Below are positions 15,401-61,750 of a stretch of DNA of 64,000 nucleotides, piece after piece. This DNA comes from Blasia pusilla (taxonomy: Eukaryota). The notes beneath the pieces are model-generated. The model was not told where the DNA came from, did no database searches, and saw only the letters and a list, made by a program, of their open reading frames with translations. Made by a program: the position numbers and the translations under genes. Each line of letters starts with the position of its first letter. Position 1 is the stretch's first letter. The DNA lies in assembly GCA_050084515.1 (NCBI GenBank), contig CM114271.1, positions 10,106,001 to 10,170,000 of the forward strand, in the 5' to 3' direction.

Positions 15401-18038
15401 TCACCCCACCCATCAAAAGAAATTGATGCTATAATTGTGAGGCAACCGATCATTGGGCAAACAACTGTCCCAACTCAAAGAGACTAGTGGGGTTGAATTC
15501 ATTGTGTGGTAATTGCAAGAAGGGAGGACACACTCCAGTGGAGTGCTCGGAACCTCAAGTGCCGCGGCTCTTGGTCAAATATGTAACCACTCCACCGGCA
15601 CCAACCAAAACCAAGAATGAGGTTAATGTGCAGCTAGTGCGCGTGTGGAAGAAGTCACCACACCAAGGATGCCAAGGAAGCTGACAATGAAGGAAGACGA
15701 CCCTGTAACGAGATCGACAAAGAGTCCTCAGATTGGCCCAAAGACATTCTCAACAAGGTCTTCCCATTGGAAACCACGTCCAAGTCTAAGAAGAAGACTG
15801 TGAGAGCAAGACCCCAGAATCTTCATCTTTTGAAAGTGTTAGGTCTACGAAGAAAGCGGTTGAGACATTTCTGCGCGGGAAAGCTATTCTGAAAGGTAAT
15901 GAGGACCTAACTTTTGATCGTAATCATCCAAAGTACTTCCATCCGGAAGTAGAGGAGCAGGTCCGTAACCAAGTTCAGGAAGAACAAGCAAGGGGAGTCT
16001 TCGTGCAATGACCCTTACATAAGCACAAAGAAGTAAAAATGGAGACCTCGTTGGCTTCCCCTTTGGTGATGGAAGCTTACGACTTGCTGAAGTATTTGGT
16101 TGCCATTCCAACAAATATGCATTTTTTGCACTTACTTATGGATAATCCCATTTATGGGAAAATTCTCCAATGTTGGAAGGTTGGACGTAAGAAGAAGGCA
16201 GGAGCAAAGAAGCTCCCACTGGTGGATTTTTTCCGCATAGAAGTTGAAGACCTTGGTGTGTCGGAAGTGGAAGTTGAAATTGAAGGGCATACCATCAAGA
16301 AGGTCCCTATAGATTCTGGAAGCAGGATCAACATCATGACAGAGTAGATCGCTCAGGCTTTAGGTCACACTAAGTATGAATCCACCGATAAGTATTTACG
16401 CTTCGCGGATCAGTCTCGTAAGCGGCCCTTGGGGCAGCTGACCCAGATATCCACTATGATAGGAGGGGTTCTATTTCTACTAGACTATCTTGTCCTTTAG
16501 CCTTTGACAGTCATAGATTACCCCTTACTCATTGGAAGACCGAGGCTTTATGGGGCTGAGGTCAATTCAAATTGGAAAAGACGAAGATTCACGTTCCAAA
16601 CGCCATCAAGTACTTCCAAGAAGTTGGTGAAGTTGTCTTGGAAGTCTCGGCCGTCTCAAGGAGAGACACCTGCCATGGATGAGGGGTATACCTTGGATCA
16701 AGACCTGGCAATTGATACTGAGTCCTTGTCCTATGTGTGCTACTAGGAGTGCTATGAGATAGATGAAGAATTTCTACAATCAGAGCAAAGCAAGTCCTTC
16801 CCAAGAGAGGAGCCAACTAGGCTCACTACCTACCAATTCACGGACAAAATGGTGTAGGTAAAGGACTACCAAGAAGTCTTGATCAGCAATACTAAGGCAT
16901 TACGTTTGTCTGCAGACTTGATGCATCTAAAATTTCACTATATAAAACTTTGCTTTCGAAGTACCTTGATGTGTTTGCCTACACCATGGATGAGATAAAA
17001 GGAGTACGAGCCAAATATGGGGAGCATAGAATTGATCTAAAGCCTGGGGAAATCCCTGTGCAAATGTGGTAGTATAGATTGAATCCAAAGTATTCCTTAA
17101 TGGTCAAAGATGAAAATGATCAGAGGTTGGAAGAAGGAGTCATCTATCCGGTGCTTAGTAGTGAGTGGATGTCTCCCATAGGCATTGTTCCGAAGAAGAA
17201 GTCGGGTAAGATCAGGGTATGTCAAGACTATAGGAAGCTTAATGCGGCCACCCTGAAGGATCATCATCCCCTGCCCTTTACCGATACTATCTTAGATAAA
17301 GTGGCTGGTCATGAACGCTACACATTCCTGGACGGATATTTCGGTTACAATCAAGTGTCCATTAGAGAAAAGGACCGGGCCCTGACTACCTTCACCACAG
17401 ATTGGGGTACTTTTGCCTATCGAGTGATGCCTTTTGGCATGTGCAATGCCCTTGCCACTTTTCAAAGAATGATGATCTCTATCTTTCAGGAGTACTTGCA
17501 AAGGTTCATAGAGATCTTCTTGGATGACTTTTGTGTCTTTAGCTCGACAGCCGATCATTTGCAGAAGCTAGAGCTGAACTTGGCTTGGTGCAAAGAAGTG
17601 CAATTGTCTTTGCACTCAGAGAAGTCTTACATTGCAATGAAGCATGATATCCTATTGGGGCATCAAGTGTCTTCGCGTGGTATAGAAATGGATAAGGCTA
17701 AGGTGGAAATAATTTCAGAGTTGGAAGCTCCCATGAATCTTCATGAGCTAAGAGGATTCTGGGGGGTTCTATTGCCCGTTCATTAAGGATTATGCACTAA
17801 AGGCAAAGCCTTTAACTACCCTACTGAAGAAAACTGAGGAGTGAGAGTGGTTGCCAGTGTGTCAGACGACATTTGATGAGTTGAAGCAGGAGTTGATAAC
17901 TTCTCCTGTGCTTCGTCCTCCGGACTGGACGAAGACATTTCAAGTGTATGTAGACACCTCTTCGTTTGCCATTTGTGTAGTACTAAATCAATTAGATGAG
18001 AAGAAGAAGGATTACCTTATCTATTACGCAGGTCAGAA
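12439..18038 (+). mobile_element. 3'-truncated Athila-like Ty3/gypsy element (partial 5' LTR to ~13697, PBS, gag, PR, RT, start of RH)
   Basis: LTR homology, PBS TGGCGCTGCTGCCGTGGA (13721-13738) resembling the tRNA-Asp-type Athila PBS, and the coding motifs listed in the next feature. Confidence 0.88.
14279..18038 (+). pseudogene. gag (three CCHC-like knuckles), protease, RT, partial RNase H
   Basis: MAQPRKALLRYPTF..; CSACGTQGQTVPECP, CYNCEATDHWANNCP and CGNCKKGGHTPVECS; VPIDSGSRINIM (PR); QDYRKLNAAT..FLDDFCV (RT); QVYVDTSSFAI (RH). Confidence 0.9.
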
Positions 18039-19297
18039 ATACAATTGATAGATCATTTGGAATGATCTCAACGTGTAAAATAAATTTGCAGCATTCCCAT
18101 CGTCCTCTGAAGGGGAAATATCTCTAAAGCATGTCAATACTGATTCTAGAGAATCACACAATGTGGTCACAGCTTGCCAACGGGATAACCATCTAATCTT
18201 GTGGTATCTCTTCATAACTCGTTGGGAGTCATTGAATTTTTCTTGCAACGATGCTAGAATTGTTTTCCTCTTGGACGACCTTCTAAAGTAACCAGCTATT
18301 GCATTGAGAATCGAATCGACTTCAGAGGATATTGACTTGCAATCAGGAGCTTTCGCAGCTGACAAAGCCGCCAAAATTGTTCTATGGGCTACACAATGAA
18401 CTGAAAGAATATAGGGATTTACCTTCTGCTTTATTTGGGAGGCCACCCCTGTCTGGCTACCTACCATTGTAGAAGCTCCATTTGAACCAAATGCTACCAT
18501 TGTGGAGAATTCTAACCCTCCATCTTTGATTAGTTGCAACAAACTTTCAGTAATAGCATTGGAACATTTTGATTCGCAACGAAGTAGTCCCGGAAAACAA
18601 CATTCTGCGTGGCCCTCTTCAATGAAGGTGGCAAACAAAACCAAATGCCCTGTTACAGATATATCAGTTGACTCATCGATCATAATGCCATAGAAAGGAG
18701 AGGCTTGAACTCTCACAAGAGTTCTTCTAAACAAAACTTGGCTAATGAAGTAACACATCTCACTACAACTCTTTTCATCATGATATAAATCTCAGGTAAT
18801 AGAGGTATTGATCAATAACATTAACTTACAAAGGCTAGGAAATTAAAAAAATGGCATAGCCTCCTTCGCAAGGAAGTATGCGCACTTAAACAATGTCAAC
18901 AACGCGATTTCACAAGTGCGGTTGGTGGTGGAAACTTCTTACCCCCATGTGCAGCCCATGCAAGCTTGATGTGCTCGTTGGACTTGGCATGATCAGTGAA
19001 GGCTGAAACCTTACAGTTTATTGCGCCATCTTTGGCAAACACACTCTTTCCTTTCCCCTTCTTACAAACTTTACAAAAGATTCTACCAAGGGTTGAATCC
19101 CACTCAATCCAATCATACATCGAATATCATACATCCTTGCATGCTACACGAACTTTTCCAGGTACATTCGCACTGCTTCCTAACAAAGGCGACTCATCTC
19201 TATCATCAGATGAGTGAGACAATGCGATAATGTCACGCTCGTTATTGATTCGTTCCTTACCTAGGAAGGAAGTCATTGTCTTTTTCCTCTTGGCCAT
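18039..19297 (-). pseudogene. N-terminal half of hAT transposase (ZNF862-like type)
   Basis: N-terminal zinc finger (IFCKVC..H), YGIMIDESTD, VHCVAHR and KIRWLSR motifs, with frameshifts. Confidence 0.88.
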
Positions 19298-19898
19298 ATG
19301 CACTACTGGGCACTGGGCAACTATCTGGACTACAACATGAAAGCACGGAAGAAGGGCTACCCCACGGGAATAAGCTGGAATGGAGGAGCTGCAATGAGCT
19401 CCAAGATTTCAAAGTAAAGAGCAAAGTAAAGTGAGAGTAAAGTAAATAGTGAGCTGATAAAGAGCCCGCGGGATACGGCTAGGAGGAGGACACCCTGGCT
19501 CAAATCGAGATAAACCTTGGCCCAAATGAACATAAACCCTGGTCCAAATCGAGAGAAATCTTGGCCCTAATGGACAGAAACCATGGCCCAAATCTAGAGA
19601 AACCCTTGACCAAACAAAGAGAAACTCTGGCCCAAATTTGCATAAACCCTGAATCGCACGATGGAAAAAAAGGTGAAGTCGCGGTCGTGTCTAAACAGTT
19701 CTCAACGCTGGAAGTCCCCACCCGTAACCAAGTCGAACTAGAGAGAGTGTGAGTCTCTGAGAGCCGAGAGAAGTTGCAGCAGCTGCGCAACTTGGAGAGG
19801 CCCGCGTAAATGTAGGCGATTTGCGGAGCAGCAGAGCAAATCGATGCAAACTTGCTAAGGAAACAAAAATAAGAAATATATCCCGGCTGCTTGAGAGA

Positions 19899-20004
19899 TG
19901 TCGTGCGAATCCACATCGTCATACAACATACATCGTTGACATACCATACTCACATACGTACATAACATAGACGAGAGTATCCACAAACGCAAGTGTACCA
20001 CAAC
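19899..20004 (-). repeat. Repeat unit A, terminal copy (106 bp)
   Basis: Direct repeat of 20375-20480, with two substitutions seen. Confidence 0.95.
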
Positions 20005-20372
20005 TGAAATCCGTGAAAGACCTACTGTCATAAAACACGTTTACAATCACATACAATCGAGCCAAACCCACTCCACGATGGGAGAATCCAGGTCGAAGCT
20101 TGCGGGAAACACCATAGCCAAGAGCTCTACTCACTACCAAGGCTAACTCCCAACGCAATAGGCTCAACTCAAAGAACTGACTGTTCTTTGAGTGCACTCC
20201 ACCTTATATCCTCCAACCTAAGAGCGGGCCCTACTAGGAAACTCACCCCCAACTGAGTAACCTCCAACCCTATGTATGGAACCGCATCTCTACCAAGCCA
20301 CTACGGTCCTACATAAGGAATGACCTCTACTAGCACACTATACTCTACGACATAATCCGTATGGTCATGACA
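20005..20372 (-). repeat. Repeat unit B, 3' copy (~370 bp)
   Basis: Direct repeat of 29271-29640 with only a few differences. Confidence 0.95.
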
Positions 20373-20374
20373 GC

Positions 20375-20480
20375 TGTCGTGCGAATCCACATCGTCATAC
20401 AACATACATCGCTGACATACCATACTCACATATGTACATAACATAGACGAGAGTATCCACAAACGCAAGTGTACCACAAC
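20375..20480 (-). repeat. Repeat unit A, internal copy directly after the polypurine tract
   Basis: Direct repeat of 19899-20004. Sense AGGGGGGCGA (20490-20481) abuts it, and GC separates it from B. Confidence 0.95.
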
Positions 20481-20653
20481 TCGCCCCCCTAACTGGCGGT
20501 TAGGTCCCTCTAACTCCCAGGTAGCCCTATACATCTACTACATGCTATACACCTTCTTGGGTGCCTGAATCACAAGGCCGGGTGCTAGGTTGCCCCATCG
20601 TTAGTCGCACATCTGTAATCCATATCATGCAAAGATCAAGTCATCTACCTCTC

Positions 20654-20794
20654 CTAAGTACATCGAGGACAAACCCACCTTCCAAGAGGGAACAACATCC
20701 AAACGTGGAGTCAAACACATCATGTGCCAACCCCTAGAACACCGATCACACACCAACATACGGGTGCGTTACGTGCAGACCCACACAACATGCA
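20654..20794 (-). pseudogene. PHD finger (C4HC3) at the C-terminus of pol
   Basis: Manual minus-strand translation: CMLCGSARNAP / MLVCDRCSRGWHMMCLTPRLDVVP / GRWVCPRCT*, with two 1-nt frameshifts. It is not visible in the ORF track. Confidence 0.88.
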
Positions 20795-20799
20795 CCTCA

Positions 20800-21970
20800 A
20801 GCTAGCACGTATCATGGCTAAGCTTGGGTCAATCAGATACCATCCACATTTGGAAGATGACATGGCGCACAATTACGCACATGGTCCTTCCAAACAACTC
20901 CATCACGACCCTCCAACATGAGAACTCCAGAAGCTAACACCTCGCGCACTCATAAAATAGTGCGGCCTGCCGTCACATCCAACGTTGTCAGGGCAATCTG
21001 CTGCAAATAGACATAGTCCCCCACATGGAACCTACGAATCGATGGTCGATAACCTCCACCTCGAATGGTTGCATACCGCAACGTATCCCCTGTGTTGAGC
21101 AATGGCAAGATTCTCAAAGGTCGTTGGCATAACTCTCCGAAAGAGCTCCGCCCGTTGAGAACACACCCTCATCCACATCTCCGGGTCATCAAGGTTCACC
21201 ACCTCACTAGACTCCCGACCAATTCTTTGGCAAGTCGGATCTCGGCCGTATAATGAAAATAAGGTGAGAAGGAAGCCAAGGATGCTTGACGATCGAACCT
21301 ATACCCCATGGCTAACCATGGCAATCGAATATCCGGTCTCCAAGATGCCCTTCAGAGGCCATACTTGCGCAATGCCCTTTTCATCGCCCCGAACCACACG
21401 CTCAGCCAAACCATCCGCCCCGGATGATCTCGAGACGTGGTCCGATGATCAATCAACGCCTTGTCACACAAGACTGAAACTCATCCTGAAACTCAGACCT
21501 GGTTGGTCAAGACTTGGTGATGCACCAAAATGACTAAGCACTCTATCCAAACGCATACGCCATTCCCTCACTCGCCTTGTCCGGTAATGCCACCAACTCA
21601 ATCCACTTGGAGAAGTGCTCCACCATCACCAACACATATCGATGATGTCGTACAGTCAACGGTAACGGTCCCGCAAAGTCCACACTCCAATGGTAACCCA
21701 ACCCCATAATAGGCAAGGGGTGTAATTGTGGTGTATGGGCATTAAATGATGCCCTCACCCGGTCACAAACCATACAATGTGACACCAACTGCTGCACCTG
21801 AGTATGCATGCCACGCCACCAATCTTCGCCAAGGAGTAAGCTATACGACGCTTTACCCCAAAATGTCCCAACTCCTCATGGGCATGTCGCACAATGCGCT
21901 CTCTCTGAGCCAAATGTGGCACTACTCGTACTCTACCATCCTCCCACACGCGGAGAATATGTGTTCCCTC
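20800..21970 (-). pseudogene. Ty3/gypsy integrase
   Basis: HAHEELGHFG..CMVC (HHCC) and WSVDFAGPLP..VMVEHFSKWIE (DDE core), frameshifted. Confidence 0.9.
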
Positions 21971-23640
21971 CAATCGATACCTCTTAGCACGTTGAAGAAC
22001 ACGGTCTCGCTCCTTGGCACCCTACTGGTTCGTAGGAACTCCAACACCAACGCATCATCATGAATATCACGCTGATCCGTACCACCATCTCCAACCTTAG
22101 GATCTGAAGGCTGGCCATCTACCCTCTGACTAGAGTAAGATATCATGTGGTCCTCCATACTAGAGTCCACCCCTAACCAACATAAAAAGGCGGATGCATG
22201 CCAACCTGGCACCATCTCCTCATCAACCTCGCCATGCCATCTAGCCCTTGTTGTATCCTCTTGGCTAGTACATGGGTTCCTACTCAACCCATCAGCATCA
22301 AGGTTGGCAACTCCAAGTCTATGTACCACCTGGAAGTCATACTCCTGTAAGATAAGAGCCCACCGTGCAAGCTTCCCTGTAAGCTTGTCCGACTCCATCA
22401 ACCACTTGAGCGGTTGGTGATCAGTAACAAGGGTAAACTGGGTGCCAAACAAGTAACACCTAAAGTGTGCCACAGCCCACACTACTGCCAAGCACTCTCC
22501 CTCATATGAACTATAGCGCGACTCCGCTGCATTATTCGAACGACTTGCATAGGCCACCACAAACTCCATGTGCTCATCATCATGTTGTGTCAACACCGCT
22601 CCAAGTCCCAACCTACTCCAATCAGTGTGTAATTGAAATGGGCGCCCTCTGATAGGTCTCCTCAAGATAGGCGCCGCCACCAACTGGGCCTTAAGCTCCA
22701 CAAAAGCTCTCTCCTGATCATCTCCCCAGTGCCACTCTTGATCTGATTTCAGCAATTGGTTCAAAGGCTTTGCCATAGCACTAAATTCCTTCACATACCT
22801 CCGATAGTAGTTCGCCAATCCCATGAATGCTCGAACTCTACTCACATCTACCGGACACGGAATAAGAGCAATAGCCTCCACCTTTGCTTGCTGAACTCCC
22901 AAACCACCTGGATAGATCACATGACCCAAGTACTCAACATCCTCATGGAAGAACTTACACTTTCCTGGATGCAAACGTAGACCATGAGCTTTCAACCGCT
23001 CAAACACCATCTGCAAATATATTTGATGCTCCTCCACCGTGTTACTGAACACCAAGATATCATCAATGTAACACCGAACAAAATCCAACCCTGCTAGGAT
23101 CCTGTCCATCACTCTTTGAAACTCGGCAGGTGCATTCTTCAACCCAAAGGGTAAGAATTTCCACTGGTACAAACAATCCTTGCCATGAGAGTTGACACCC
23201 CAAAATGTTGTCTTGGCCTTGTCACTCTCCCGAATCGGCAATTGATGGTATCCTGCCCGAAGATCCAAAGTACTGAAAATCTTTGCCTGTCCCACCACAT
23301 CAAAGATCTCCTCATGTGTAGGCATGGCATACCTATCGGCCTTGGTTTGCCGATTGATAGGACGGTAATCTCCACACATCCGCCTATCCGTAGTTGCCAT
23401 GCATATCCTTTTAGCAAGCATGACAGTGGTCGATGCATACTCTCCATGCGACAACTCCACTAATCCAGCCTCCAAAAGATCCAACGTCCTACTCAATCAA
23501 GTCCTCTCCATATCACTATATCGGTAGGGACGACGGTAAGATTGGCGTATCACTAGCCAAATCAATCCGTATACCGGGTCCAACCAGAGAACCCAACTCC
23601 TTCATGCTAAAGGCAAAACAACTCCTATAAGCACGTAGGA
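21922..23640 (-). pseudogene. Ty3/gypsy reverse transcriptase and RNase H
   Basis: The 524-aa ORF contains RMCGDYRPIN, LDLRAGYHQ, LPFGLKNAP, YIDDILVFS, LHTDWS..GAVL, YEGECLAVVWAV and TDHQPL. Confidence 0.95.
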
Positions 23641-23994
23641 ACTGTGTCAAGCGTCGTTTCTCACCTCCCGTAAGCTTGGGCCCAAGTAATGGCTTCCAAT
23701 TCTCCTCCACTGGCACACTAGAGGGAGAGGACGATGCCATTGGTCGCTCATAACCCCCTCACAAGATGGTACACCCTTAGCTACACCATCATCTGAGCAA
23801 ATAACTCCTCCACCATCATGAGCAACCAACTCCATATGCCCAGCCATTACATCCCATTTACTCCAAGGATGCAAAATACTACTCTCCTCGCCCCCAGCCG
23901 ATGCCTCTACCGTCCCGGTAGCCATCGAGCTCATTACAAGGGGTGGAAGACCCACAGACATAGTCCAAAGTCGACGCTGCTCGGCCATACCAAG

Positions 23995-24940
23995 ACTCAA
24001 AATCCAAGTCAAACAATTCAGGTCCATGGCCTGACCCAACACATGACGTCGTGAAGCCTCACAAATAGAAGCAACCGTTGTCACACCAGTAGCAAATCCC
24101 ATCGCACGCTCTCTCTCATTAGTGTTAGGCTCCACCAACTGTCGCACATGAGAATCCCATACAAGCCCCGGACCACCTTCCCTGTAGGCATGTGACGAGG
24201 GAAAACTCACAAATGTGGGTAGTGCCATCCTAGGCTGGCCCACACGGTTCACCACCGCCATGGGTGACCGATCAATAACCCTCACCACTTGAGAAAGTCG
24301 CCCAAGATCAAGATACTATCCACTTTGTAAGGCGAGGATCCCGCCAGACCGCATCATATGCTCGACGTAGAACCTCCTAGGCAACAAGTTTGTCCACCAC
24401 AAGCGTGGGCGATGTGCACGCTGAGCCAACTCTTGCATCAACAACACCGCTGGTCCAATCCAAGACCGCACCTCATGAACACTCGCCATCATCTGGGTCC
24501 GAGTGTCACCCAACAATGGAACATTCTCCAGAATGTAAGCTAGAGCACGTGCCTGATGAACCTGAAGATGTCGTAACACCCGTAACATCTCCCAAAACAA
24601 TCGAGACCTAGGGTCATATAATCCCTCACCACGACCAGCACGTGTATGACCCTGACATGACCATCCAGCAATCACCAAATCCACAGGACCAATACCCTCA
24701 AAGTCCTGCGCCCCCAACAATGCAATGTGTGATGGTAAAGCACGCTGGTACCCACTAATAGCTGATGGCGGCAACAACTCAGGATACCTCCGCATCAACT
24801 GACCAATATGTCGGGATGAGACTCTCTGGGCCGTCTCATCTCGCTCCACATACACGTATCTCCGCCTGGAATACCGCCCGCAACATCAGAGCCAAACCAG
24901 TGCTAATCCCACCAAAGAGATCTAACACACAAATGCCCTC
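23995..24940 (-). pseudogene. DNMT3-like DNA (cytosine-5) methyltransferase domain within pol
   Basis: Motifs in canonical order: VLDLFGGISTG (I), YVERD (II), DLVIAGWSCQG (IV), RLFWEMLRVL (V), YILENVP (VI), AHRPRLWWTNL (VIII), ERERAMGF (IX), RRHVLGQAMDL (X). A few frameshifts. Confidence 0.92.
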
Positions 24941-25299
24941 CGCGGATCTTGCGCCATACAATGGGTGTAGTATCCAAAGGAGATAACCCAATCGGGCCAC
25001 AAGTAGGAGTCCGCCGTGGGGCCTCCTCTTCCTCGTGAGGTATAATGACCTCACACCAAGCCTCTCTGCACTAGGCGTCGCCTCTGCCGTAGTGCACCGC
25101 CTGAACTCCAAAGTGGCACATCCAACGATGAGGATGCCACTGCTGCAAAAATAGGGACCTCCTCTACCTCCTCATGCGCAGGAGAATCCATAGCAGAAAC
25201 ATTACCCTCCAAAAAGTCTCCTGGCCAAGTGACTACTCCACTAAAACCAGCCACAGATGCTAACACTGTTGGGGAAGACCCTCCTGGTCGAGCCCCAGA

Positions 25300-25780
25300 A
25301 ATAAATCTCACACGAACTTGGCTCATACGTCCATCCCGGACGCCAACCAGGTCAGAAGACGCCTGTCTCGACCCGATAATCCATCTGAAAACCCATCGGG
25401 TACAATATTGCTCCTCCAACTAGTACATCATACGACTCGGCTGATGTGACTACCGCAGATACTCCCAACCGGGAGCTATCAGTCGCATGATCTGGTCTCA
25501 ACTGTACAGAAAACTTTTCCCGTGTCATGAATTGAGACCTATCATTGGCTCCTCCAAGTGATGTTTGAATCTGGAATGGGCAAGGCTCAAGCTCTGACCT
25601 CCGAATACCCAAACCAATACATGCCGCCTTTCCCAACATCAAGGTTGGGCACCGAGTCTAACAAGACTCTATCGGTCTATACACTCCCCAGTAGGACTCA
25701 CCAATCGGAAGATCCCACTCCGGTTGTCCAACATACATACACCAGGTGTAAGCCTCTCACGATCAATGGTGGCCGGGTGG
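25300..25780 (-). pseudogene. Aspartic protease
   Basis: RVLLDS(G)AQP.MLG (frameshifted here, intact LLDSGAQP in the copy at ~56900) followed by YDVLVGGAIL. Confidence 0.8.
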
Positions 25781-26299
25781 TAATGCATCCATCTTCGCCG
25801 CCGCCAAGTAGCACCGGTACTCAATGCTACTCGACATAGAGGGTCGCTCCACCGCAACACCCTCATCCACCTCAACACGTAGCAAGAACACCCCACGTTC
25901 ACACAACGTGGTCGCGAATCGAAATACAGAGCTAAGTCAACTCCTAAAGCCATCGCTCCGTGGCCGAAAACAATGGGGATCCCAACACTGAAGTTGCCAT
26001 CCGCACATAATCTTGCATTGATCTTTGCATCCGTGTCTACTACACGCGATGTAGATGCCTCGATCCCCACACTCGGCTCAATAGGCTGCGAGGAACCATG
26101 GATGGAGTCCTAAGCACCTCGCAGACAACAAGAATGATGGGAAGCCTAGCTCGCCTCCCGGCCTCACCCTCTATGGGTCCAACTCACAAAGAGCACCACG
26201 TGGCTCGACGCTCGAGTGGCTCCTCTCAGAATCGCAGCTTGGTGATGCCTCAACTTTGTGTTGCACTCGCCATATAAGAGAGATCATCCCCTCCATAAG

Positions 26300-27783
26300 A
26301 GGTGGAAGCCCCTGCTCCCGAACTGATCTATCTTTGGATACCAGCCATAGTAGCCAACTTCTGCTCCAACTGCTCAATCCTGGCAGCCATAGCTGACTCT
26401 GTCGTAGTGGTAGGGGCTACCACCAGTGGTCCACCTCTACCACCCCTACCACCTCTACCACCTCGGCCTCTCGGAGCTACTCCACCACGGCCACGGCCTA
26501 ATCTCAACTCGGGATGGAGATCAAAGCAACGCTCTCGAGGATGACCTAGTCTCCCGCAATGATCACACTGAGTTGGGGCCGACTGAGGCCCATCCTCCAA
26601 AGTCCGTCTCCCATCCTCTTGGGGACAAAACTTCCTAACATGATCACCTCCACATGTCCAACATGATCGCCCTGCCGCGAGGCAAAGCAAATGAAGGCAA
26701 TGGTCTCTGCACAAATGTCCTCTAGGACTTGATCGAGGTCGCGTGTACCCCCACGACTCCCACTACTACTACCACCACCACTACTACGAGATCGTGAGGT
26801 GGGGGCGGCTGAACACGAGAAGTAGTAGTTGTATCCCTCTCGAATGCGGATGTCACCACTCTCTCCTTCACCATGTTAAGCTCAATCTTCTCAGATAGAG
26901 CAAACACATGGGTCAATGTGGGTGAATCATCACTCATAAGAGTAGCATCACGCACCCTACGGCACAAATCTCTGCCCAAGATCCCATACTAAAACCGGAT
27001 GCTCGATCCTAAGTCACACCCTGGGTAATCGAAATCAGCGTCGATACGCGTGTATGCCTCACGAAGACTCTCACCGAGTCTTTCGCTCAAAGTCCTGAAG
27101 ATTCCTCAACTTCTCCGTCTTCACTCCTTGATAATTCTTCCTCAACCTCTTGAAGAACTCGCAGAACCGGGCTAACGATGGTGGGGCACTAGTACCTCCA
27201 CTAGTACCCCCACTAGTACCTCCACTTTGGTACCCCCACTCGGCTCAGATTCGCACCACCACTCGGGTCGGGCCGGGCCGGGCATAGTAGGAGCACTACT
27301 ACCAATACCACCATGGGTGATAGACACATAGCCTGGAGACCAATATTGTCTCCATGCCTCAATCTCAGCAACATGGTCCTTCCTAGACTCATGGTAATCA
27401 TCCATAGGTGGTCCTTCCAAGTGCTGAAACAACCCCTTCCAAGCCAAGAAGGGTGTAAACAACGTGGCATTCCGCAACATCTGCATATCACACCACGTAT
27501 CAAACTCCTGCATGAAGTCCTCCAACTCAATGGTACCCACTGCACCCAAGTATCGTCGTGGGCCCTTCATGGCCCCATATCCACCGTCCATGTCCCAAAT
27601 CAATGGAGCTGCAACACTCGATAACAACGTAGAAGACTCGGTGTTTGGAACACCCTCGTCCTCCTCTTCATCAACCGTCGGAAGTGAAAAAGGTGGCCAA
27701 TACCTAAATCCACTCCGTGTGAAACCACCACTGTCCGCACCACAGTCCCCAACCAGACCACCCGACAGCTCCGTGATGACCAA
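26300..27783 (-). pseudogene. gag with zinc knuckles and RGG-rich tail
   Basis: CWTCGGDHVRKFCP, CDHCGRLGHPRERCF and RGGRGGRGG; homologous to 57660-59100. Confidence 0.82.
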
Positions 27784-29259
27784 CGCCGATGCCGCACCAC
27801 CACCAAATTACCCAAGTGACGTCGATGTCGCTCTACTATTGTAGCTCTACTAGCTATGGGTGTAGGCAATCTAACCTCTCATCACTACAAGAAGCCTCCC
27901 ACGGTCTACTGGTCATCACTCCAGCCTCACTACCGGTAGCACACAGGAGTAACACTACTCTGGAAATCAGCGTTAACCCTAACAATGGGCGCGCAAGCAA
28001 GAAGCACGATGGAGGGGATCCAAACACAGGAAGTCCAACGACAACCCTCCAACCGCAAATGAAAATCAAGGTAACACAATCCACCAAACGTGGTGCCCCT
28101 GAATCCACAAAACCCACCACACAATTCTAACGCAATAGCTACTCCGCCGTGGTCGATGACGACTAGTCGAACTCGCAAAGACCTGAAAATATCACTGCAT
28201 GGAGAGGCTACACCGTACTATGCGCTAGAGGTACATCAACCAAAAACTTGAGATGCATAAAGCGCCTAACACATCTCCGAACAAAGACCAAATGAGCTAC
28301 AACAGTCAGACATCGGCCTAGTTAAGAACTCAAAGCAATTAAGCGTCCTCCAGCAGAATAGCCCAAAGATGGGTGACCAGTTATGCAAAACTCAAATCCC
28401 AAATCCTGCAAAAATTGCCTCACGCCCAAGCAAGCAAGCTTGCTTGCTTGCTCTTTGCTCCTTACTCCGCCTCTCACGCCCACTCGCCCCGAGCTACCAC
28501 GAGTTGCCTCAAAGCCTCAAAACGCCGTGATATGCCCCGTTCGCCACGCTTCGCCATGCTTCGCTATGGAGAGAGGTCCAACCAGGGCGCCCCCAACGGG
28601 ATAGGCGTCTCCAAAAATGAACGAGTCACCAACCAACCAGCCCCTCCGATCCACTGTCCACCATAGCCAGACCTTGAGCTGTCCGCGAAATTTCGATCAG
28701 AAATTACTTCACAAATACGTGACCGAAATCAAATCTGTTTCGATCAGAATTCAATTGACCACCATAGCTATCTCCCCACAAAAACTCAGCTACAACCGAG
28801 CTCCGTGCCGAGCTAAAAATCAGACAAACTTCTTTGTCCATACACCTCTAGAACAAAATCCAATGGCGCTTCCGCCAAGTTTCATGCACGCAGAAATCCA
28901 TAACGCTCCACGCACTCGAGCAGATAGCTTCACATGAGATCACAATACAAGTAGCAATAGGAACCTCTCACCCGATCTGGATGAACTTCAACAGAGCTTC
29001 CGCACTCCAAGCTCTCCACATCGAAAAGCGTCGAACACGAACAGAATCTTCAATGCTTGATAACTTCCAACTCCCTTGACGAAATCCATCTCTGGTAGCG
29101 TTGGAAAGCTCTCAGCAAGGCGCTTCTTTCCCAACCAACCACGCACCTGATTCACACCTCCAACATAGGCAACAAGCCCCGAACATCCACGGCTGAGTAC
29201 ACAATCAGCCCTAACCAGATCCTACTGATCTACAATCGAAGCTACCATCGATCTACTCC

Positions 29260-29270
29260 AGTTCTTTGAG
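29260..29270 (-). promoter_or_regulatory. Putative self-priming primer-binding site
   Basis: Sense CTCAAAGAACT directly follows the CA end of B. It lacks the TGG start of a tRNA PBS and is the exact complement of sense AGTTCTTTGAG (29446-29436). Confidence 0.75.
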
Positions 29271-29640
29271 TGAAATCCGTGAAAGACCCTCATTGTCATA
29301 AAACACGTTTACAATCACATACAATCGAGCCAAACCCACTCCACGATGGGAGAATCCAGGTCGAAGCTTGCGGGAAACACCATAGCCAAGAGCTCTACTC
29401 ACTACCAAGGCTAACTCCCAACGCAATAGGCTCAACTCAAAGAACTGACTGTTCTTTGAGTGCACTCCACCTTATATCCTCCAACCTAAGAGCGGGCCCT
29501 ACTGGGAAACTCACCCCGAAGTGAGCAACCTCCAACCCTATGTATGGAACCGCATCTCTACCAAGCCACTACGGTCCTACATAAGGAATGACCTCTACTA
29601 GCACACTATACTCTACGACATAATCCGTATGGTCATGACA
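29271..29640 (-). repeat. Repeat unit B, 5' copy (5' LTR equivalent)
   Basis: Direct repeat of 20005-20372; sense TGTCATG...GATTTCA. Confidence 0.95.
29444..29476 (-). promoter_or_regulatory. Putative LTR core promoter (TATA plus initiator)
   Basis: Sense TATAA starts at 29476, and the A of an Inr-like TCAGTT is at 29446, 30 nt downstream. Confidence 0.6.
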
Positions 29641-31725
29641 GAGAACACAGTCCGGGAACAATGGAGGGTTGCAGCCTTTCCAAGAGTCACGGACGTGCCA
29701 CACATTGAGCAGCCCCCATACCGATCCTTAGCAGTAACGCTACCAAGCCCACTAAAAACGACCAAGCCAAGGCTGCCAAGTAGTAATGCGAGCAGCAAGC
29801 TTACAGGATTGGGAAGCACAATAGCAGCAAGACGGAGCGCCAGGAGCCAAGCTACAGAAGATTTCACAACACGAGAACCTGACGTGAGAGACAGCACTGG
29901 AGCAACAACGCGAATGACGTTTGTGAAGGTCAGAAACATGACCAGCGAGCGGTGAGAGGCAAGCTTGCATGATCCAACAGCAGCAGCAACGATACGAAGC
30001 ACTAGAACAGCAATGCGAAACTCGGGGAGAGACAGCCACTCGAACGGCAAGGCGAATGAAGATCTGAGGGGAAGAAACGCGAGCGGCGAGAGCAGCGAGA
30101 CGGAGCGTTGGGAGCGGAGACTCCACGAGTCCACAACATGCGAATGAGGCCCCCAAGGGCGCGCAGTGGGGTCTCCACCCTACTACGAGCCCCTAGGGGG
30201 ATATGGCACTTCTACTTCCAACCGTCGGATTCAGATCGGACGGCTCAAATTAGTGTGCCCTAAATGGGCTTAGGGCACACATTTGAGCGGACGGTCTAGA
30301 TCCATCAGTCTCCCCCTCATCGAATCCTCAGCGTCACTCGTACTTTTCCGGCAGCTGGCACCCCAGGCGGAATATAACCGTCCGCCGGTAAGAGCACTCC
30401 AGCCAGTAACCGGTTTCCCTACCCGGACGGCGCCACTTTTTGACGTCTTCCTGCCGGGAAACAGTCAAATTCCAGCGCCTTGTCTTTGTGCCTGACAGTT
30501 GCCAGTATCTACTCAATTTCACCCGGAACTGCTGCCGGGAATTTTTTCAAATCGTCGGAAATGTCTGAAAACTGCCGGCCGGGATTACTCATAACCTCGG
30601 ATCTCTCCGAACATTGCTACAGAAATTCCATATTTAATGGAACGAATAACATTAGAAGTCACTGAAAAGTGACGGGGCTATGGATCCTCAATAATCGTTG
30701 AAAAATCACTCGAGTGGAGTGTTGGTGGAAAGTTCAACCTTTCAGGCTCTATTCTAAGACAGATTCTTATGCCGCGTTTGACTGAGATGCCGATTCTGCT
30801 GAACCTGTTCTCGTAATTCCTACTCCGGATTCCACCGCCCCAAATCATTAGCCTGGACCACTCACTAGCTGGGTACGTACGCCACGCCGAAGTACTAACT
30901 CTTATCTTCTATTCAGGAACACAGAGCCATCGCTTGCCGGCCATTTTTTGGATGTCATGGGATTACACTTTCGTGCGGAACAATCGCTCCAGAGGAGTGA
31001 CTGACTCGCCGTTGGCAGGGTAGTCGTGTCCATCAAGTCACATTCTGGACAGCCCCGGAATAGAGACATCCGATTTCAAACCGCAGTGGTGGTACATTGT
31101 CAGTCACTTAAGTCTAACCGAGGTATCTAGCTGGGGTCCGGAATTGGCGGTAAGTCTACTTCAAGTCTTGTCACCTGGTTCCATCAACAAGAGTCATCAA
31201 ATTAAGCCTGTTTTTCTTTTAATTCCTACAATTTTGATCCCCAGCATTGTCGTTTAGTTTTGGCCCAACTCTTACCCAAATAAAGGAATGCTAGAAGCTC
31301 CCGGTGGATCGACGTGACGGCGGGCTTTCATCACTCCTGAATACAGACGCCCAGCACCCACCTAGTGCGTAAATGCGTGGAAGCATGAGACTTGTGATCT
31401 TTGACATAATTCTGCTAACAGGTGAGATCAGGAGTTGATAATCTCGATCAGAGCAAGCGAATAGTGATCCCAAAGTCATTCCGTAGTGAAAGGTTAGCAG
31501 GTATGTAATTTACTAAACCAGCCCGTGAGATTACAGAACATGTACGCTCAGAAGTCGTTTGAGAGAATCGCCATGATAGACCGCAAGAAGAAATTAGTAT
31601 GTGGTGCTGATTCTGTGTCACATAATCCTGCTCGAGTGTCACTTGTATATTCTTCCAACGCAATGTCAACTTTTGCTTTCCTCTTGGGCGGTCGCGCTCA
31701 TCGGCCAAGAGAGTAAAGAGCCTTT

Positions 31726-32805: not shown

Positions 32806-35800
32806 CAAGGTTTTTTTGAATTGTCGGGTTATTACAGGTATCATTGATATTTTTTCGGATATTCTTTTTAAGTGCATGTCGTAATAGGAATATTTGTAGC
32901 TTTTCAATTATTTTCTGGAAATTCTTTTTCTCGTCGGTTAAAATTCGAAAAAAAAAATTTCTAATTTTCTTATTTCTGGGGTTGAATTTTTTTTCTCTGC
33001 CAATTTCCGATCGAACTTTGTGAAGCTGGCCAAAAACCGACCGTTCCTAACGTGGCCGGAATTTTTTTTCTTCACACACTCCTTATATTCTCCACAACCC
33101 TGCAATGCTGAAAAACCTAATTCCTGATATCAAATTCTTCCCCTGAAGTAGACATGCAATCTTCTAGTATGCAATAAAAAATGCAATCTTCTAACACAAT
33201 AAAAGAAAATCATCCTTGACAGGAGTTGAACCTGACAGAACTCCCACCAGTTGGGAACCAAGGATCCTACCCCTCTTGAATACTTGGAGCCATGAGGCTC
33301 CAAGTATTCAAGAAGGGTCCTACTTCCTAAGACCTAAATGATCAAAGTCTTCTAATCTAGAGGGGTTTCAATAACTTCAACTTCCTCATTCGGGGAGATG
33401 TATCTATCAGGATTTGCAAACAAGTACCTAAAATGAGCAGAATTCTTCCACAATATCACAGACTCAGACAACATCTCCTCATAATCAGAGGAAGGTCCTT
33501 CTAAGGCAATCCTCAAGACAACATCTAAATACTTTGTGGTGAACCTATTACGAGATTTACTCTTGATCGTGTTTTGAATGGAAAAGGCTCTCTCACATAT
33601 GGCAGTACTAACACACTGGACTCTAGCTATATTTTCCAAAATCAACAAATTAGAAAACTTACATTGCAATGACGGACTCCAACTTACCATCGCCCACAAG
33701 TCTCTGAAGTTGCGATCTTTCCACTCAGTGGTAGCCATCAATTTGAAAGATTGGAACTCTTGCTTAACAATCAAAGAATTAATGATAGTTGGTTGCAACA
33801 CACCCCGTAATGGCAATTGATTTCCAAAAAAACCACAAAAATCATCTAAATCTTTACACCCCCAACTATTCAATCCCACTTTCCGAGAAGGCATGTGCAA
33901 AGGATTGATTATTCTCATAGATCCAATCAGGTTATTATCTCGAAATTGCTCATGTAAAGATATACACACACTTTCAGCAAACCTTTTCAGAAAGAATAAT
34001 GCATCCTCTAAGTCCCTTTCGGTCCGATCTTGAGACATAGCAATGCTATGAAACTTATTTCCCCTCATCGTGGATTGTAAACGACAAAGATAACCACCAA
34101 GTGGCCCAAAATCAAGAAGTATATGGTAACATGTATCTTTAGAGAAGGTGGAGGCATTCAAGTCATGAGTTTCCATGACAAAATTCATGGTAATCCTAGC
34201 TATCTCCGAATTCAAAATGCTCCCTATAGTGCTAATATTCACAAACTTGTACTGAAATATCTAACTCGGATTTGCAAGCATCGAAAGAATGTCAGCCAAA
34301 AAGTACACTTGATAGATCATTTAGAATGATCTCAACGTGTAAAATAAATTTGCAGCATTCCCATCGTCCTCTGAAGGGGAAATATCTCTAAAGCATGTCA
34401 ATACTGATTCTAGAGAATCACACAATGTGGTCACAACTTGCCAACGGGATAACCATCTAATCTTGTGGTATCTCTTCATAACTCGTTGGGAGTCATTGAA
34501 TTTTTCTTGCAACGATGCTAGAATTGTTTTTCTCTTGGACGACCTTCTAAAGTTACCAGCTATTGCATTGAGAATCGAATCGACTTCAGAGGATATTGAC
34601 TTGCAATCATGAGCTTTCGCACCTGACAAAGCCGCCAAAATTGTTCTATGGGCTACACAATGAACTGAAAGAATATAGGGATTTACCTTCTGCTTCATTT
34701 GGGAGGCCACCCCTGTCTGGCTACCTACCATTGTAGAAGCTCCATGTGAACCAAATGCTACCATTGTGGAGAATTCTAACCCTCCATCTTTGATTAGTTG
34801 CAACAAACTTTCAGTAATAGCATTGGAACATTTTGATTCGCAACGAAGTAGTCCCGGAAAACAACATTCTGCGTGGCCCTCTTCAATGAAGGTGGCAAAC
34901 AAAACCAAATGCCCTGTTACAGATATGTCAGTTGACTCATCGATCATAATGCCATAGAAAGGAGAGGCTTGAACTCTCACAAGAGTTCTTCTAAACAAAA
35001 CTTGGCTAATGAAGTAACACATCTCACTACAACTCTTTTCATCATGATATAAGTCTCAGGTAATAGAGGTATTGATCAATAACATTAACTTACAAAGGCT
35101 AGGAAATTAAAAAAATGGCATAGCCTCCTTCGCAAGGAAGTATGCGCACTTAAAAAATGTCAACAACGCGATTTCACAAGTGCGGTTGGTGGTGGAAACT
35201 TCTTACCCCCATGTGCAGCCCATGCAAGCTTGATGTGCTCGTTGGACTTGGCATGATCAGTGAAGGCTGAAACCTTACAGTTTATTGCGCCATCTTTGGC
35301 AAACACACTCTTTCCTTTCCCCTTCTTACAAACTTTACAAAAGATTCTACCAAGGGTTGAATCCCACTCAATCCAATCATACATCGAATATCATACATCC
35401 TTCCATGCTACACGAACTTTTCCAGGTACATTCGCACTGCTTCCTAACAAAGGCGACTCATCTCTATCATCAGATGAGCGAGACAATGCGATAATGTCAC
35501 GCTCGTTATTGATTCGTTCCTTACCTAGGAAGGAAGTCATTGTCTTTTTCCTCTTGGCCATGTGCACTACTGAGCACTGGGCAACTATCTGGACTACAAC
35601 ATGAAAGCACGGAAGAAGGGCTACCCCACGGGAATAAGCTGGAATGGAGGAGCTGCAATGAGCTCCAAGATTTCAAAGTAAAGGGCAAAGTAAAGTGAGA
35701 GTAAAGTAAATAGTGAGCTGATAAAGAGCCCGCGGGATACGGCTAGGAGAAGGACACCCTGGCTCAAATCGAGATAAACCTTGGCCCAAATGAACATAAA

Positions 35801-37164
35801 CCCTGGTCCAAATCGAGAGAAATCTTGGCCCTAATGGACAGAAACCATGGCCCAAATCTAGAGAAACCCTTGACCAAACAAAGAGAAACTCTGACCCAAT
35901 TTTGCTTAAACCCTGAATCGCACAATGGAAAAAAAGGTGAAGTCGCGGTCGTGTCTAAACAGTTCTCAATGCTGGAAGTCCCCACCCATAACCAAGTCAA
36001 ACTAGAGAGAGTGTGAGTCTCTGAGAGCCGAGAGAAGTTGCAGCGGCTGCGCAACTTGGAAAGGCCCACGTAAATGTAGGCGATTTGTGGAGCAGCAGAG
36101 CAAATCGATGCAAACTTGCTAAGGAAACAAAAATAAGAAATATATCCCGGCTGCTTGAGAGAACACAGTCCGAGAACAATGGAGGGTTGCAGCCTTTCCA
36201 AGAGTCACGGACGTGCCACATATTGAGCGGCCCCCACACCGATCCTTAGCAGTAACTCTACCAAGCCCACTGAAAACGACCAAGCCAAGGCTGCCAAGCA
36301 GCAATGTGAGCAGCAAGCTTACAGGATTGGGCAGCACAATAGTAGCAAGACGGAGCGCCAAGAGCGGAGCTACAGAAGATTTCACAAAAGGAGAACCAGA
36401 CGCAAGAGACAGCACTAGAGCAGAGACGGGTACTGGAGCAGCAACGCGAATGACGTCTGTGAAGGGCAGAAACGTGACCAGCGAGCGGCGAGTAGCAAGC
36501 TTGCAGGATCCAACAACAGGAGCTGCGATATGGAGCATTGGAACAGCAACGCGAAACTCGGGGAGAGACGGCCACTCGAACGGCAAGGCGAATGAAGATC
36601 TGAAAGGGTAGAAATGCGAGCAGCGAGAGCAACGAGGCGGAGCAGCGAGACGGAGCCTTGGGAACACAGACTCCACGAGTCCACAACATGCAAATGAGGC
36701 CTCCAAGGGCCCGTAGTGGGGTCTCCACCCCACTGCGAGCACTTGGGGGATATGCCACTTCTACTTCCAACCGTCATATTCACATCGGACGGCTCAAATT
36801 AGTGTGCCCTAAATGGGCTTAGGGCACACATTTGAGCGGACGGTCTAGATCCATCTGTCTCCCCCTCAGCAAATCCTGAGCATCACTCATACTTTTCGGG
36901 CAGTTGGCACCCGAGGCGGCAAATAACCGTCCGCCGGTAAGAGCGCTCCCGCCAGTAGTCGGTTTCCTTACCCGGACGGCGCCACTTTCTGACGACTTCC
37001 TACCGAGAAATAGTCCAATTCCGGCGCCTGGTATTTGCGTCTGACAGTTGCCGGTATCTACTCAATTTCACCGAGAACTACTGCTAGGAATTGTTTCAAG
37101 TCGTCAGAAATGTCTGAAAATTGCCGGCGGGATTACTCGTAACCCGGGATCTCTCCAAATATTG
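32806..37164 (-). mobile_element. hAT DNA transposon copy 2, complete (4.36 kb)
   Basis: Perfect 8-bp TSD TTCGGATA (32798-32805, 37165-37172), termini CAA...TTG, and a hAT transposase inside. Confidence 0.93.
33352..35561 (-). pseudogene. hAT transposase (ZNF862-like type), disrupted
   Basis: Zinc finger, DESTD, HCVAHR, RWLS and the C-terminal dimerisation motif STAICERAFSIQNTIKSKSRNR, with stops and frameshifts. Confidence 0.92.
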
Positions 37165-61663: not shown

Positions 61664-61750
61664 TGATCCTCAATCTCTTAAGCCTATCCTCTTCTACTTG
61701 CAAAGGTGCTCTACCAGATCTCTCTGATCTATCCTAAAAAAGTGGTGACG

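Follow-up and report, generated by a model that had tools for sequence, protein, structure and literature searches.

A Ty3/gypsy-type retrotransposon of Blasia pusilla with split terminal repeats and a putative integrase site inside its LTR

The stretch of Blasia pusilla DNA analysed here (64,000 nucleotides of contig CM114271.1, hereafter the window) carries a Ty3/gypsy-type LTR retrotransposon on its minus strand, from position 29640 to 19899. The element is multi-copy, and the copy seen here is degenerate. Read in the sense direction, its parts follow the order TSD-B-PBS-gag/PR/DNMT3-like/RT/RH/IN-PPT-A-GC-B-A-TSD, where A and B are two repeated segments, the TSD is the target-site duplication, and the PBS and PPT are the primer-binding site and the polypurine tract.

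The coding region begins with a degenerate gag and protease-like region (25352–27807, minus strand as for all coding features below), which was recognized by eye and has no Pfam support. A CCHC knuckle lies in the ORF at 26328–26762, and a DSG motif is present in the homologous ORF of L001, a metagenome contig carrying a related element. Between the protease and the reverse transcriptase, three broken frames (23647–25171) encode a DNMT3-like C5 cytosine methyltransferase domain. It matches DNA_methylase (PF00145) at 4.5e-07 and methyltransferase motifs can also be read in it, while a 449-aa ORF of L001 matches DNMT3A catalytic domains at 5e-11, with DNMT3A/B/C as the best solved relatives. This domain was overlooked by the original prediction, which was made from the letters alone. 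A 524-aa open frame at 21922–23496 follows, with RVT_1 (4.2e-32), RT_RNaseH (3.7e-37) and RT_RNaseH_2 on the one ORF. The integrase lies downstream at 21543–22021, split over two frames that hold an H2C2 zinc finger and the N-terminal part of the rve core. In this broken copy the Integrase_H2C2 and rve matches are below the Pfam cut-offs. In the homologous L001 ORF rve scores 1.3e-13 and 51.5 bits against a cut-off of 32.6, and the D, D and E residues are readable. The enzyme is a DDE (rve) integrase with an H2C2 zinc finger, and the order protease, RT, RNase H, integrase, with Gypsy-type RT and RNase H, is that of Ty3/gypsy elements. No match to a tyrosine recombinase (Phage_integrase, PF00589) was found in 20 window ORFs and 6 L001 ORFs. 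The nearest named proteins come from liverworts and mosses; among 33 protein matches, 16 are from Marchantia, two from Calypogeia, two from Sphagnum and none from Klebsormidium.

The termini depart from the Ty3/gypsy plan of two identical LTRs bounded by a PPT and a PBS, as the 5′ end has B only and the 3′ end has A-GC-B-A. The first copy of B (B1, 29271–29640, minus strand; TATAAG at 29476–29471, hairpin at 29461–29435) begins right at the flank, its TGTCATG... forming the integrated 5′ end. Directly after B1 comes ACTCAAAGAAC (29261–29271, minus strand), a putative self-primer binding site that is complementary to GTTCTTTGAGT at 29445–29435. At the other end, and also on the minus strand, the polypurine tract AGGGGGGCGA (20481–20490) adjoins A1 (20375–20480), the start of the LTR as reverse transcription defines it (U3 start). 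After a GC dinucleotide (20374–20373) B2 follows (20005–20372; TATAAG at 20208–20203, hairpin at 20193–20167), then, from the B2/A2 junction at 20005/20004, A2 (19899–20004), whose last bases ...CACGACA are the integrated 3′ end and are followed directly by flank. The two copies of A are 98.1% identical (104/106), and the two of B (29640–29271 and 20372–20005) are 97.8% identical over 370 nt. The RT-defined ends look usable (GT-TG...CA) yet appear unused.

The repeat that lies between PPT and PBS, A-GC-B, is out of register with the integrated ends, which are the start of B and the end of A. These ends, TGTCATG...CACGACA, are the two halves of a near-palindrome, CACGACA-GC-TGTCATG, which is kept at 20366–20381 (minus strand) and consists of the A end, the GC spacer and the B start. 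It is the proposed internal att site of the integrase. Both the register shift and the palindrome-half ends had been claimed in the original prediction, and they hold down to the last coordinate.

Is the unit from B to A really one insertion? On the plus strand GAGA stands at 19895–19898, on the 3′ side of the element (TCTC in sense), and at 29641–29644 on its 5′ side. The flanks 18037–19898 and 29640–30616 match one continuous paralogous segment (34301–36162 / 36158–37164). In the alignment this uninterrupted segment has one GAGA (36159–36162), against a copy on each side of the element in the filled site. The empty site shows that everything from B to A, with TG...CA at its ends, was inserted in a single event that duplicated 4 bp of target, and that the TSD is more than a four-nucleotide coincidence. 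The duplication length expected of a DDE integrase was thus borne out.

To look at other copies, we used the exact 20-nt A-GC-B junction as a layout-neutral probe, which finds only copies that retain the junction (B-int-A and solo B-A forms are invisible to it); two related families were sampled. Seven metagenome contigs from six distinct sites carry the identical 20-mer, L003 and L004 being one site. Their family is 75–82% identical to the window element at the nucleotide level and also has a DNMT. The PPT and internal region precede A1 in L001, L002, L003, L004 and L007; the window PPT is unchanged next to A1 in four of these and has one change in L003 (GGGGGGTGA). L002, L003/L004, L005 and L007 run on after B into a complete A and from there into unique flank; in L006 a remnant of A follows B. 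The left end of L001 reads flank, then TGTCATGACC...B, then ACTCAAAGAAT, that is flank, B and PBS. Counting the window, flank directly after B, as in an ordinary 3′ LTR, was seen at none of seven distinct sites, and B upstream of A1, the mirror layout, likewise at none; contigs that run through high-copy repeats may be inter-copy chimeras, and only their flank-anchored ends are fully trustworthy. Ordinary LTRs in other copies had been named in advance as grounds for refutation, which failed. The split layout is not a one-off; it recurs in a second family. The window family and the contig family are set apart by 12–13 substitutions and an 8-nt indel in A, all of which A1 and A2 have in common, as expected if one template regenerates both copies. 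Between families A is 80–82% identical, and the first half of B is left unaligned by BLAST.

A further point, absent from the original prediction, concerns priming. No tRNA-like PBS adjoins the LTR of the window element. In Tf1/sushi-type elements the transcript primes itself, its first ~11 nt pairing with the PBS. The site after B looks like a self-primer of this type: in both families it is an 11-mer complementary to a site 32–33 nt past a conserved TATA box, which is the predicted transcript start, and L001 has the same arrangement as the window. There are two differences from Tf1: the complementary 11-mer doubles as one arm of a local hairpin within B, a feature hard to place in the Tf1 model, and the transcript start is a predicted one. 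In the minimum-free-energy and centroid structures the two 11-mers are paired with each other, and the folded leader has an overall energy no better than that of shuffles (z = 0.12).

RNA run X22 is of the sense strand, with a depth of 103 over A1 and the 5′ part of B2 against 13 over the 3′ part of B2 and A2. In the same run 42 reads hold internal sequence to 20481 and diverge exactly at the PPT/A boundary. The ends of RNA molecules at 20211, just upstream of the B2 TATA (20 molecules), and at 29509 (six) fit the predicted transcript poorly and may be due to clipping against diverged expressed copies. Deletions spanning the B/A junction were seen in two low-depth X1 contigs and in L006, and are what an end-joined junction would show.

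An unusual LTR arrangement is known from TOC1 of Chlamydomonas. For Gypsy elements the permuted-repeat layout is already in print: a sentence in the Figure 4c legend of de Mendoza et al. (2018, PMC5890265) gives KnitGypsy-Dnmt3 of Klebsormidium nitens a DIRS/PAT-like repeat order. The passages of that article on this element include neither a TSD nor end sequences, primer sites or a mechanism. KnitGypsy-Dnmt3 has a Dnmt3-related DNMT inside its Gypsy Pol, and the window element shares both this DNMT3-like domain, between protease and RT, and the DIRS/PAT-like order of terminal repeats. The original prediction had overlooked this published precedent.

How might such an element replicate? We infer a cycle of self-priming, a joined-end intermediate and integrase cleavage of the palindrome. 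The PPT next to A and the 11-nt self-primer site next to B would serve reverse transcription in the manner of Tf1, giving a cDNA with an A-GC-B LTR at both ends. The U5 end (the end of B) would then be joined to the U3 start (the start of A), most simply in a 2-LTR circle, creating the B/A junction. Integrase would cut after CA on both strands at the CA-GC-TG palindrome of the PBS-proximal LTR. This palindrome can be seen as two overlapped 3′-processed ends, such that one cut with a 2-nt stagger would yield two canonical processed ends (recessed CA-OH with a 5′-GC overhang). Their insertion with a 4-bp stagger would give TSD-B-PBS-int-PPT-A-GC-B-A-TSD. Such a provirus is the 2-LTR form in circularly permuted order and would still be transcribed from B1. 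One complete LTR (A-GC-B) would remain as the template for the next cycle, with A2 as a by-product.

There is precedent for the cleavage step. The integrases of PFV (PMC1180852) and HIV-1 (PMC1905944) are described as cleaving the palindromic LTR-LTR junctions of 2-LTR circles, and re-integration from retroviral circles is treated in PMC4372172. As in the cycle proposed here, integration-competent ends are regenerated when a DDE integrase cleaves at a CA...TG palindrome lying inside the viral circle. In the retroviral accounts the RT-defined ends meet at the palindrome, and its use leads to an ordinary LTR provirus, whereas in the window element it lies 108 nt inside the LTR, has its halves 2 nt apart and, when used, yields a permuted provirus. 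What is a salvage route in retroviruses appears to be the normal route here.

On balance we lean towards an att site that lies inside the LTR made by reverse transcription, a position that the sequence itself indicates, with integration depending on joined cDNA ends. Of the mechanism first proposed, the register shift, the palindrome-half ends and the 4-bp TSD stand. The 2-LTR circle itself does not follow from them, as the same product would come from any route by which the U5 end meets the U3 start, for instance an end-to-end template switch by RT, or end-joining that follows strand transfer. Moreover, a free 2-LTR circle with two identical palindromes predicts the mirror form B-A-GC-B-int-A as well, and its count of 0/7 has P = 0.008 if the choice is unbiased. 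This points to a biased choice of palindrome or to an intermediate that is not a symmetric circle.

One such alternative, which we regard as unlikely though the best of the competitors, reverses the order of cleavage and joining. In the left LTR of a linear cDNA the palindrome is 108 bp away from the end; integrase would assemble there, cut it and insert both processed ends, one with a 106-bp A fragment and the other with the body of the element; host end-joining would then unite the free blunt cDNA ends (the B end and the A start) in the chromosome, with no free circle. The product and TSD would be identical to those observed. The one-sidedness would be explained, since only the end-proximal palindrome is used (108 bp against 370 bp), imprecise B/A junctions like those of L006 and the two X1 contigs are predicted, and the far better conservation of A than of the first half of B between families would fit an integrase-bound fragment. 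The cost is a chromosomal double-strand break repaired at each insertion. We know of no precedent for an integrase carrying a detached end fragment, which counts against this order of events, and the observations at hand do not separate it from the circle.

Less probable still is that reverse transcriptase makes the tandem LTR: on reaching the U5 end, the plus strand would take the opposite end's U3 start as its new template. The resulting linear cDNA, A-GC-B-int-A-GC-B-A-GC..., would be over-length, and integrase would trim both its ends, at the first and last palindromes. The product is again unchanged, the asymmetry would be set by which strand jumps, and the B/A junction is base-perfect in the window copy and at four metagenome sites (L002, L003/L004, L005 and L007). 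However, this route is purely hypothetical, it requires integrase cuts 100 bp or more from both ends, and the junction deletions (X1 contigs, L006) suit ligation better than templated switching.

We think it very improbable that a tyrosine recombinase, the element's own or one acting in trans, moves the element through a circular intermediate as in DIRS/PAT-like elements. To our knowledge tyrosine-recombinase (YR) elements make no TSD, which counts against such replication. Here there are a 4-bp TSD and TG...CA ends, the six different flanks have no common target sequence, the PPT and primer site are in LTR-retrotransposon positions, and a tyrosine recombinase domain is found in 0/26 ORFs while an rve integrase with its DDE triad is present. 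That said, "DIRS-like" is the label used in PMC5890265, and the plan of split direct repeats (A1-int-B1-A2-B2) is the defining feature of PAT, Ngaro and Viper: as PMC4157794 describes PAT, Toc, Ngaro and Viper, their X1-ORFs-Y1-X2-Y2 is identical to the plan here with X = B and Y = A, transcription starts from the first repeat, and the ends can be restored from the internal Y1-X2 unit, both as predicted here. In the same account these elements carry a gene for a tyrosine recombinase but none for a DDE integrase. A rearrangement peculiar to this locus, a nested insertion or an assembly error is hardly credible and, as far as the present data reach, is already refuted by the empty site, a single clean insertion, and by A-GC-B-A blocks beside five other flanks on independent contigs of another family, with a comparable structure published for K. 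nitens (PMC5890265), even though this is a single copy, with no further A or B within the 64-kb window, and no listed long read spans its A-B-A block.

We put forward, as a possibility that falls somewhat short of probable, that there is a streptophyte lineage of DDE-integrase LTR elements in which a joined-end (2-LTR circle-like) form is an obligatory and productive integration intermediate. Its scope so far is the bryophyte-like relatives found here plus one charophyte record. The selection of one palindrome for cleavage might even involve the encoded DNMT3-like enzyme, and likewise CAGCTG, the CHG-type core of the att site. If the proposal is true, the att site would be a palindrome in the interior, made up of two processed ends that overlap, and every provirus a circularly permuted cDNA. 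Split direct repeats would then be an outcome of integrating from a tandem-repeat circle and not a signature of tyrosine recombinases, and the family in the window would link LTR elements structurally to those of the PAT/Ngaro type.

Both repeat pairs of the original prediction were recovered at the same coordinates with a repeat finder and BLAST. In sense orientation (minus strand) the B copies (29640-29271 and 20372-20005) are 97.8% identical over 370 nt and the A copies (20480-20375 and 20004-19899) match at 104/106 positions. The same searches found no further copy of A or B in the 64-kb window. On the minus strand, the 5′ part of the element runs from the flank ...TCTC into TGTCATGACC...B...GGATTTCA and then CTCAAAGAAC..., the start of an internal region of ~8.8 kb whose 3′ end reads ...AGGGGGGCGA. 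The 3′ part comprises GTTGTGG...A...CGCACGACA, the dinucleotide GC, a second TGTCATGACC...B...GGATTTCA and a second GTTGTGG...A...CGCACGACA, followed by the flank TCTC.... The termini, which make up an imperfect terminal inverted repeat, are of the form TG...CA and are the two halves of the near-palindrome CACGACA-GC-TGTCATG, which lies at 20366-20381 (minus-strand reading) as originally placed.

A comparison of the window with itself shows both flanks of the element to be paralogous to a single uninterrupted stretch at another place in it. Identity to that stretch is 98.4% for the left flank (18037-19898, against 34301-36162) and only 86.8% for the right flank (29640-30616, against 36158-37164), an asymmetry across the insertion point. 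In a three-way alignment the empty paralogue reads ...CTTGA-GAGA-ACACAG..., and the filled site reads ...CTTGA-GAGA, the element, then GAGA-ACACAG.... Because the uninterrupted copy has one GAGA, the entire B...A unit was inserted as a single piece with a 4-bp target-site duplication (TSD). The empty site rules out a nested-insertion origin of the split layout, and single-piece insertion with a TSD likewise rules out later rearrangement or recombination with a neighbouring copy. The structural logic of the original prediction, namely the layout, a single insertion with a TSD and ends formed by the palindrome halves, holds.

The window is rich in nested retrotransposons. Three further fragments of gypsy relatives that carry a DNA methyltransferase (DNMT) have 40-70% amino acid identity to the element, and lie at 29-331 and 7009-7801 (plus strand), at 55646-58934 (minus strand), and at 61744-62094 and 63629-63952 (plus strand, including a reverse transcriptase given as 61744-63952). 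All are cut by nested insertions, and a search for their ends in the window did not find them. Two ordinary LTR pairs, each of ~90% identity, are located at 1415-1740/6405-6728 and at 47297-48135/54521-55314, the latter enclosing a reverse transcriptase at 50138-52413. A tandem array of 22-bp units (GAAACCCTGGCCCAAAT...-like, 65-82% between copies) at 19489-19664 adjoins the 3′ flank of the element on the outside.

The split layout recurs. An exact 20-nt probe for the A-GC-B junction, which occurs exactly once in each of the ordinary (A-GC-B at both ends), split (B-internal-A-GC-B-A) and mirror (B-A-GC-B-internal-A) layouts, matched seven metagenome contigs (L001-L007). These form a sister family that shares 75-82% identity with the window element across the BLAST-aligned part (at most 7.3 kb, in L001). 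The probe had 0 matches in viral_contigs; its sole match in genome_contigs (L008) was rejected as chance, being a bacterial contig without other similarity. The polypurine tract (PPT) and internal region lie upstream of A1 in L001, L002, L003, L004 and L007, while L005 begins inside A1 and L006 has unrelated sequence there. B leads into a full-length A, and this A into unique flank, in L002, L003/L004 (counted as one site, given their common flank), L005 and L007. A deletion in L006 takes away the terminal 8 nt of B together with ~80 nt of A, sparing the A end and flank. The L001 contig stops within B, and its left end reads flank, TGTCATGACC...B, ACTCAAAGAAT. An ordinary 3′ LTR end, with B abutting flank, was found at 0/7 distinct sites (window included), as was the mirror signature of B upstream of A1; these counts apply to junction-bearing forms, which are all that the probe detects, in two related families, and a contig that crosses high-copy repeats may be a chimera of different copies. 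By the terms of the original prediction, ordinary LTRs in other copies would have marked a one-off rearrangement. Such LTRs were not seen at the seven sites, and the split layout is confirmed as a family trait.

The 12-13 substitutions and the 8-nt indel that separate the two families are common to A1 and A2. The A copies are therefore homogenised, like LTR halves made from one template. By hand count, CpG decay to TpG/CpA in L002-L007 affects ~10/24 sites in A1 versus 1/16 in A2. The decayed sites recur in different contigs, and the window copy has no such asymmetry. One possible cause is mosaic assembly, in which A1 would adopt the majority state of the family and A2 would be anchored by its unique flank; another is a real mutation difference between a transcribed and an untranscribed copy. 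The flank of L007 (689-5795, sense) resembles, by eye, a copia-type polyprotein gene, so this copy too appears to be nested in another retrotransposon.

The PPT adjoins A1 in the window, L001, L002, L004 and L007, and in L003 with one change, GGGGGGTGA. In the RNA run X22, 42 reads match the internal sequence to 20481 and then diverge, which marks the PPT/A junction as a genuine boundary between subfamilies. Immediately 3′ of B1 is ACTCAAAGAAC. Its exact complement, GTTCTTTGAGT, lies within B, where it forms the right-hand side of an 11-bp hairpin; the distance from a TATA box upstream to its start is 32 nt in the window and 33 nt in the contig family. The arrangement in L001 is equal. The two 11-mers are paired in both the MFE and centroid structures of the predicted leader, a fold whose overall energy is no better than that of shuffles. 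We read the 11-mer after B as a putative self-primer, presumably of the Tf1 type. A tRNA-type primer-binding site is disfavoured, since the nearest TGG past B is 10 nt away in the window and 23 nt away in L001. Whether or not the element is self-primed, reverse transcription defines an A-GC-B LTR, with which the integrated ends are out of register by 108 nt. Both junctions share a CA-NN-TG form, CA-GC-TG at 20366-20381 and CA-GT-TG at the B/A junction (20001-20010), hence the ends defined by reverse transcription also resemble conventional LTR termini. Despite this resemblance they appear unused.

The gene order is gag-PR-DNMT-RT-RH-IN. The window element is degenerate, with frames broken throughout; an open frame of 524 amino acids carries RVT_1 (4e-32) and RT_RNaseH (4e-37) in Pfam. 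Pfam also places a C5 DNA methylase domain in this copy (4.5e-07) and gives sub-threshold matches to Integrase_H2C2 and rve, and a CCHC knuckle is visible by eye in gag. Ten further sense ORFs gave only a weak H2C2 match. The related full-length copy, L001, has an integrase core (rve, 1.3e-13) in which the D, D and E are readable. Its 449-aa methyltransferase ORF keeps motifs I, IV and VI, and has the catalytic domains of DNMT3A/B/C as its closest solved relatives (5e-11). No tyrosine recombinase was found among the 26 ORFs scanned. The core of the palindrome, CAGCTG, includes CHG sites, and the element encodes its own DNMT.

The order B-internal-A-GC-B-A is a circular permutation of LTR-internal-LTR, so the U5 end must at some step become linked to the U3 start. 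The resulting B/A junction is base-perfect in the window and at four metagenome sites (L002, L003/L004, L005 and L007), and a deletion runs across it in L006. A circle is a plausible joined intermediate. The cutting enzyme, probably the element's integrase, would cleave each strand of CA-GC-TG directly 3′ of CA, leaving recessed CA-OH ends with 2-nt 5′ overhangs. Because this double cut would leave canonical processed ends, the palindrome is, in effect, two overlapped att ends. There is precedent in PFV (PMC1180852) and HIV-1 (PMC1905944), in which integrase cleaves palindromic junctions in circles. An even choice between the two palindromes of a symmetric circle would give 0/7 mirror copies with P = 0.008. 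Two variants would account for this absence. The first involves a cut in linear cDNA at its end-proximal palindrome, with the free ends sealed once strand transfer has taken place. In the second, the tandem LTR is made during reverse transcription, by an end-to-end template switch of the plus strand. On present data neither is separable from the circle.

The element is transcribed and multi-copy. First mates of X22 are overwhelmingly plus strand across it, which for stranded libraries of the usual kind means minus-strand, sense RNA. Mean depth is ~100-140 over 20152-20919 versus 13 over 19768-20151, implying that A1 is transcribed far more than A2. The predicted transcript is not matched by the RNA ends at 20211 and 29509, which are not interpretable as a poly(A) site and a transcription start and were left out of the definition of R. 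Two internal joints in X22, 21046>27505 (6458 nt skipped, 5 reads) and 21129>22107 (977 nt skipped, 16 reads, 9-nt filler), suggest transcribed, internally deleted derivatives of the family. In the sequencing runs X1 and X3, summed contig depth over the element, which is not a copy number, is far above that of the flanks. Precisely the B/A junction is bridged by deletions in two contigs of X1 (20005>20045, with a 7-nt filler, and 19969>20105). On the element stretch the Logan contigs of X1, X3 and a further run, X6, are ~85-400 nt long, below the length needed to tabulate layouts.

Elements of this kind are already recorded, though barely described, and ours is a new example. KnitGypsy-Dnmt3 of Klebsormidium nitens combines a Gypsy Pol with a Dnmt3-related DNMT, and de Mendoza et al. 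(PMC5890265) report this repeat architecture for it in a single sentence. Neither section 9 of that paper nor its Fig. 4 legend gives ends, TSD or mechanism, although its supplements may hold more, and we found no further literature on KnitGypsy. The nearest named proteins of our element are bryophyte, and its host is probably a bryophyte: its 33 protein matches (~60-72% identity) comprise 16 from Marchantia polymorpha, two from Calypogeia fissa, two from Sphagnum and 13 unnamed, with none from Klebsormidium, the host of KnitGypsy-Dnmt3, and identity of lineage is not implied. PAT, Ngaro and Viper have an equal repeat plan (PMC4157794). Their defining tyrosine recombinase is absent from our element, which has a TSD. 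Searches for split direct repeats with integrase and LTR retrotransposon returned reviews and tyrosine-recombinase papers only, TOC1 with split direct repeats returned no paper, and Marchantia or liverwort retrotransposons with DNMT or methyltransferase returned nothing on this family. No mechanism for a DDE-integrase element with split repeats was found in the literature searched, to which the supplements of PMC5890265 may add. The present analysis adds proof, from the empty site, that integration was of the DDE type, and it adds the overlap of ends within the internal att site, the putative self-primer and a layout that is one-sided.

LTR retrotransposons and retroviruses are textbook cases of integration at ends set by reverse transcription, and 2-LTR circles are regarded as dead ends. 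LTR-finding software, and the rule that split repeats signify a tyrosine recombinase element, will misclassify families such as this one as truncated, nested or DIRS-like. As the element is transcribed and multi-copy, its mechanism lends itself to direct tests in a plant system. Integration in a shifted register in all sampled copies, with a TSD and a DDE integrase, suggests that the att site can be separated from the cDNA ends and that a joined-end form can be the normal substrate.
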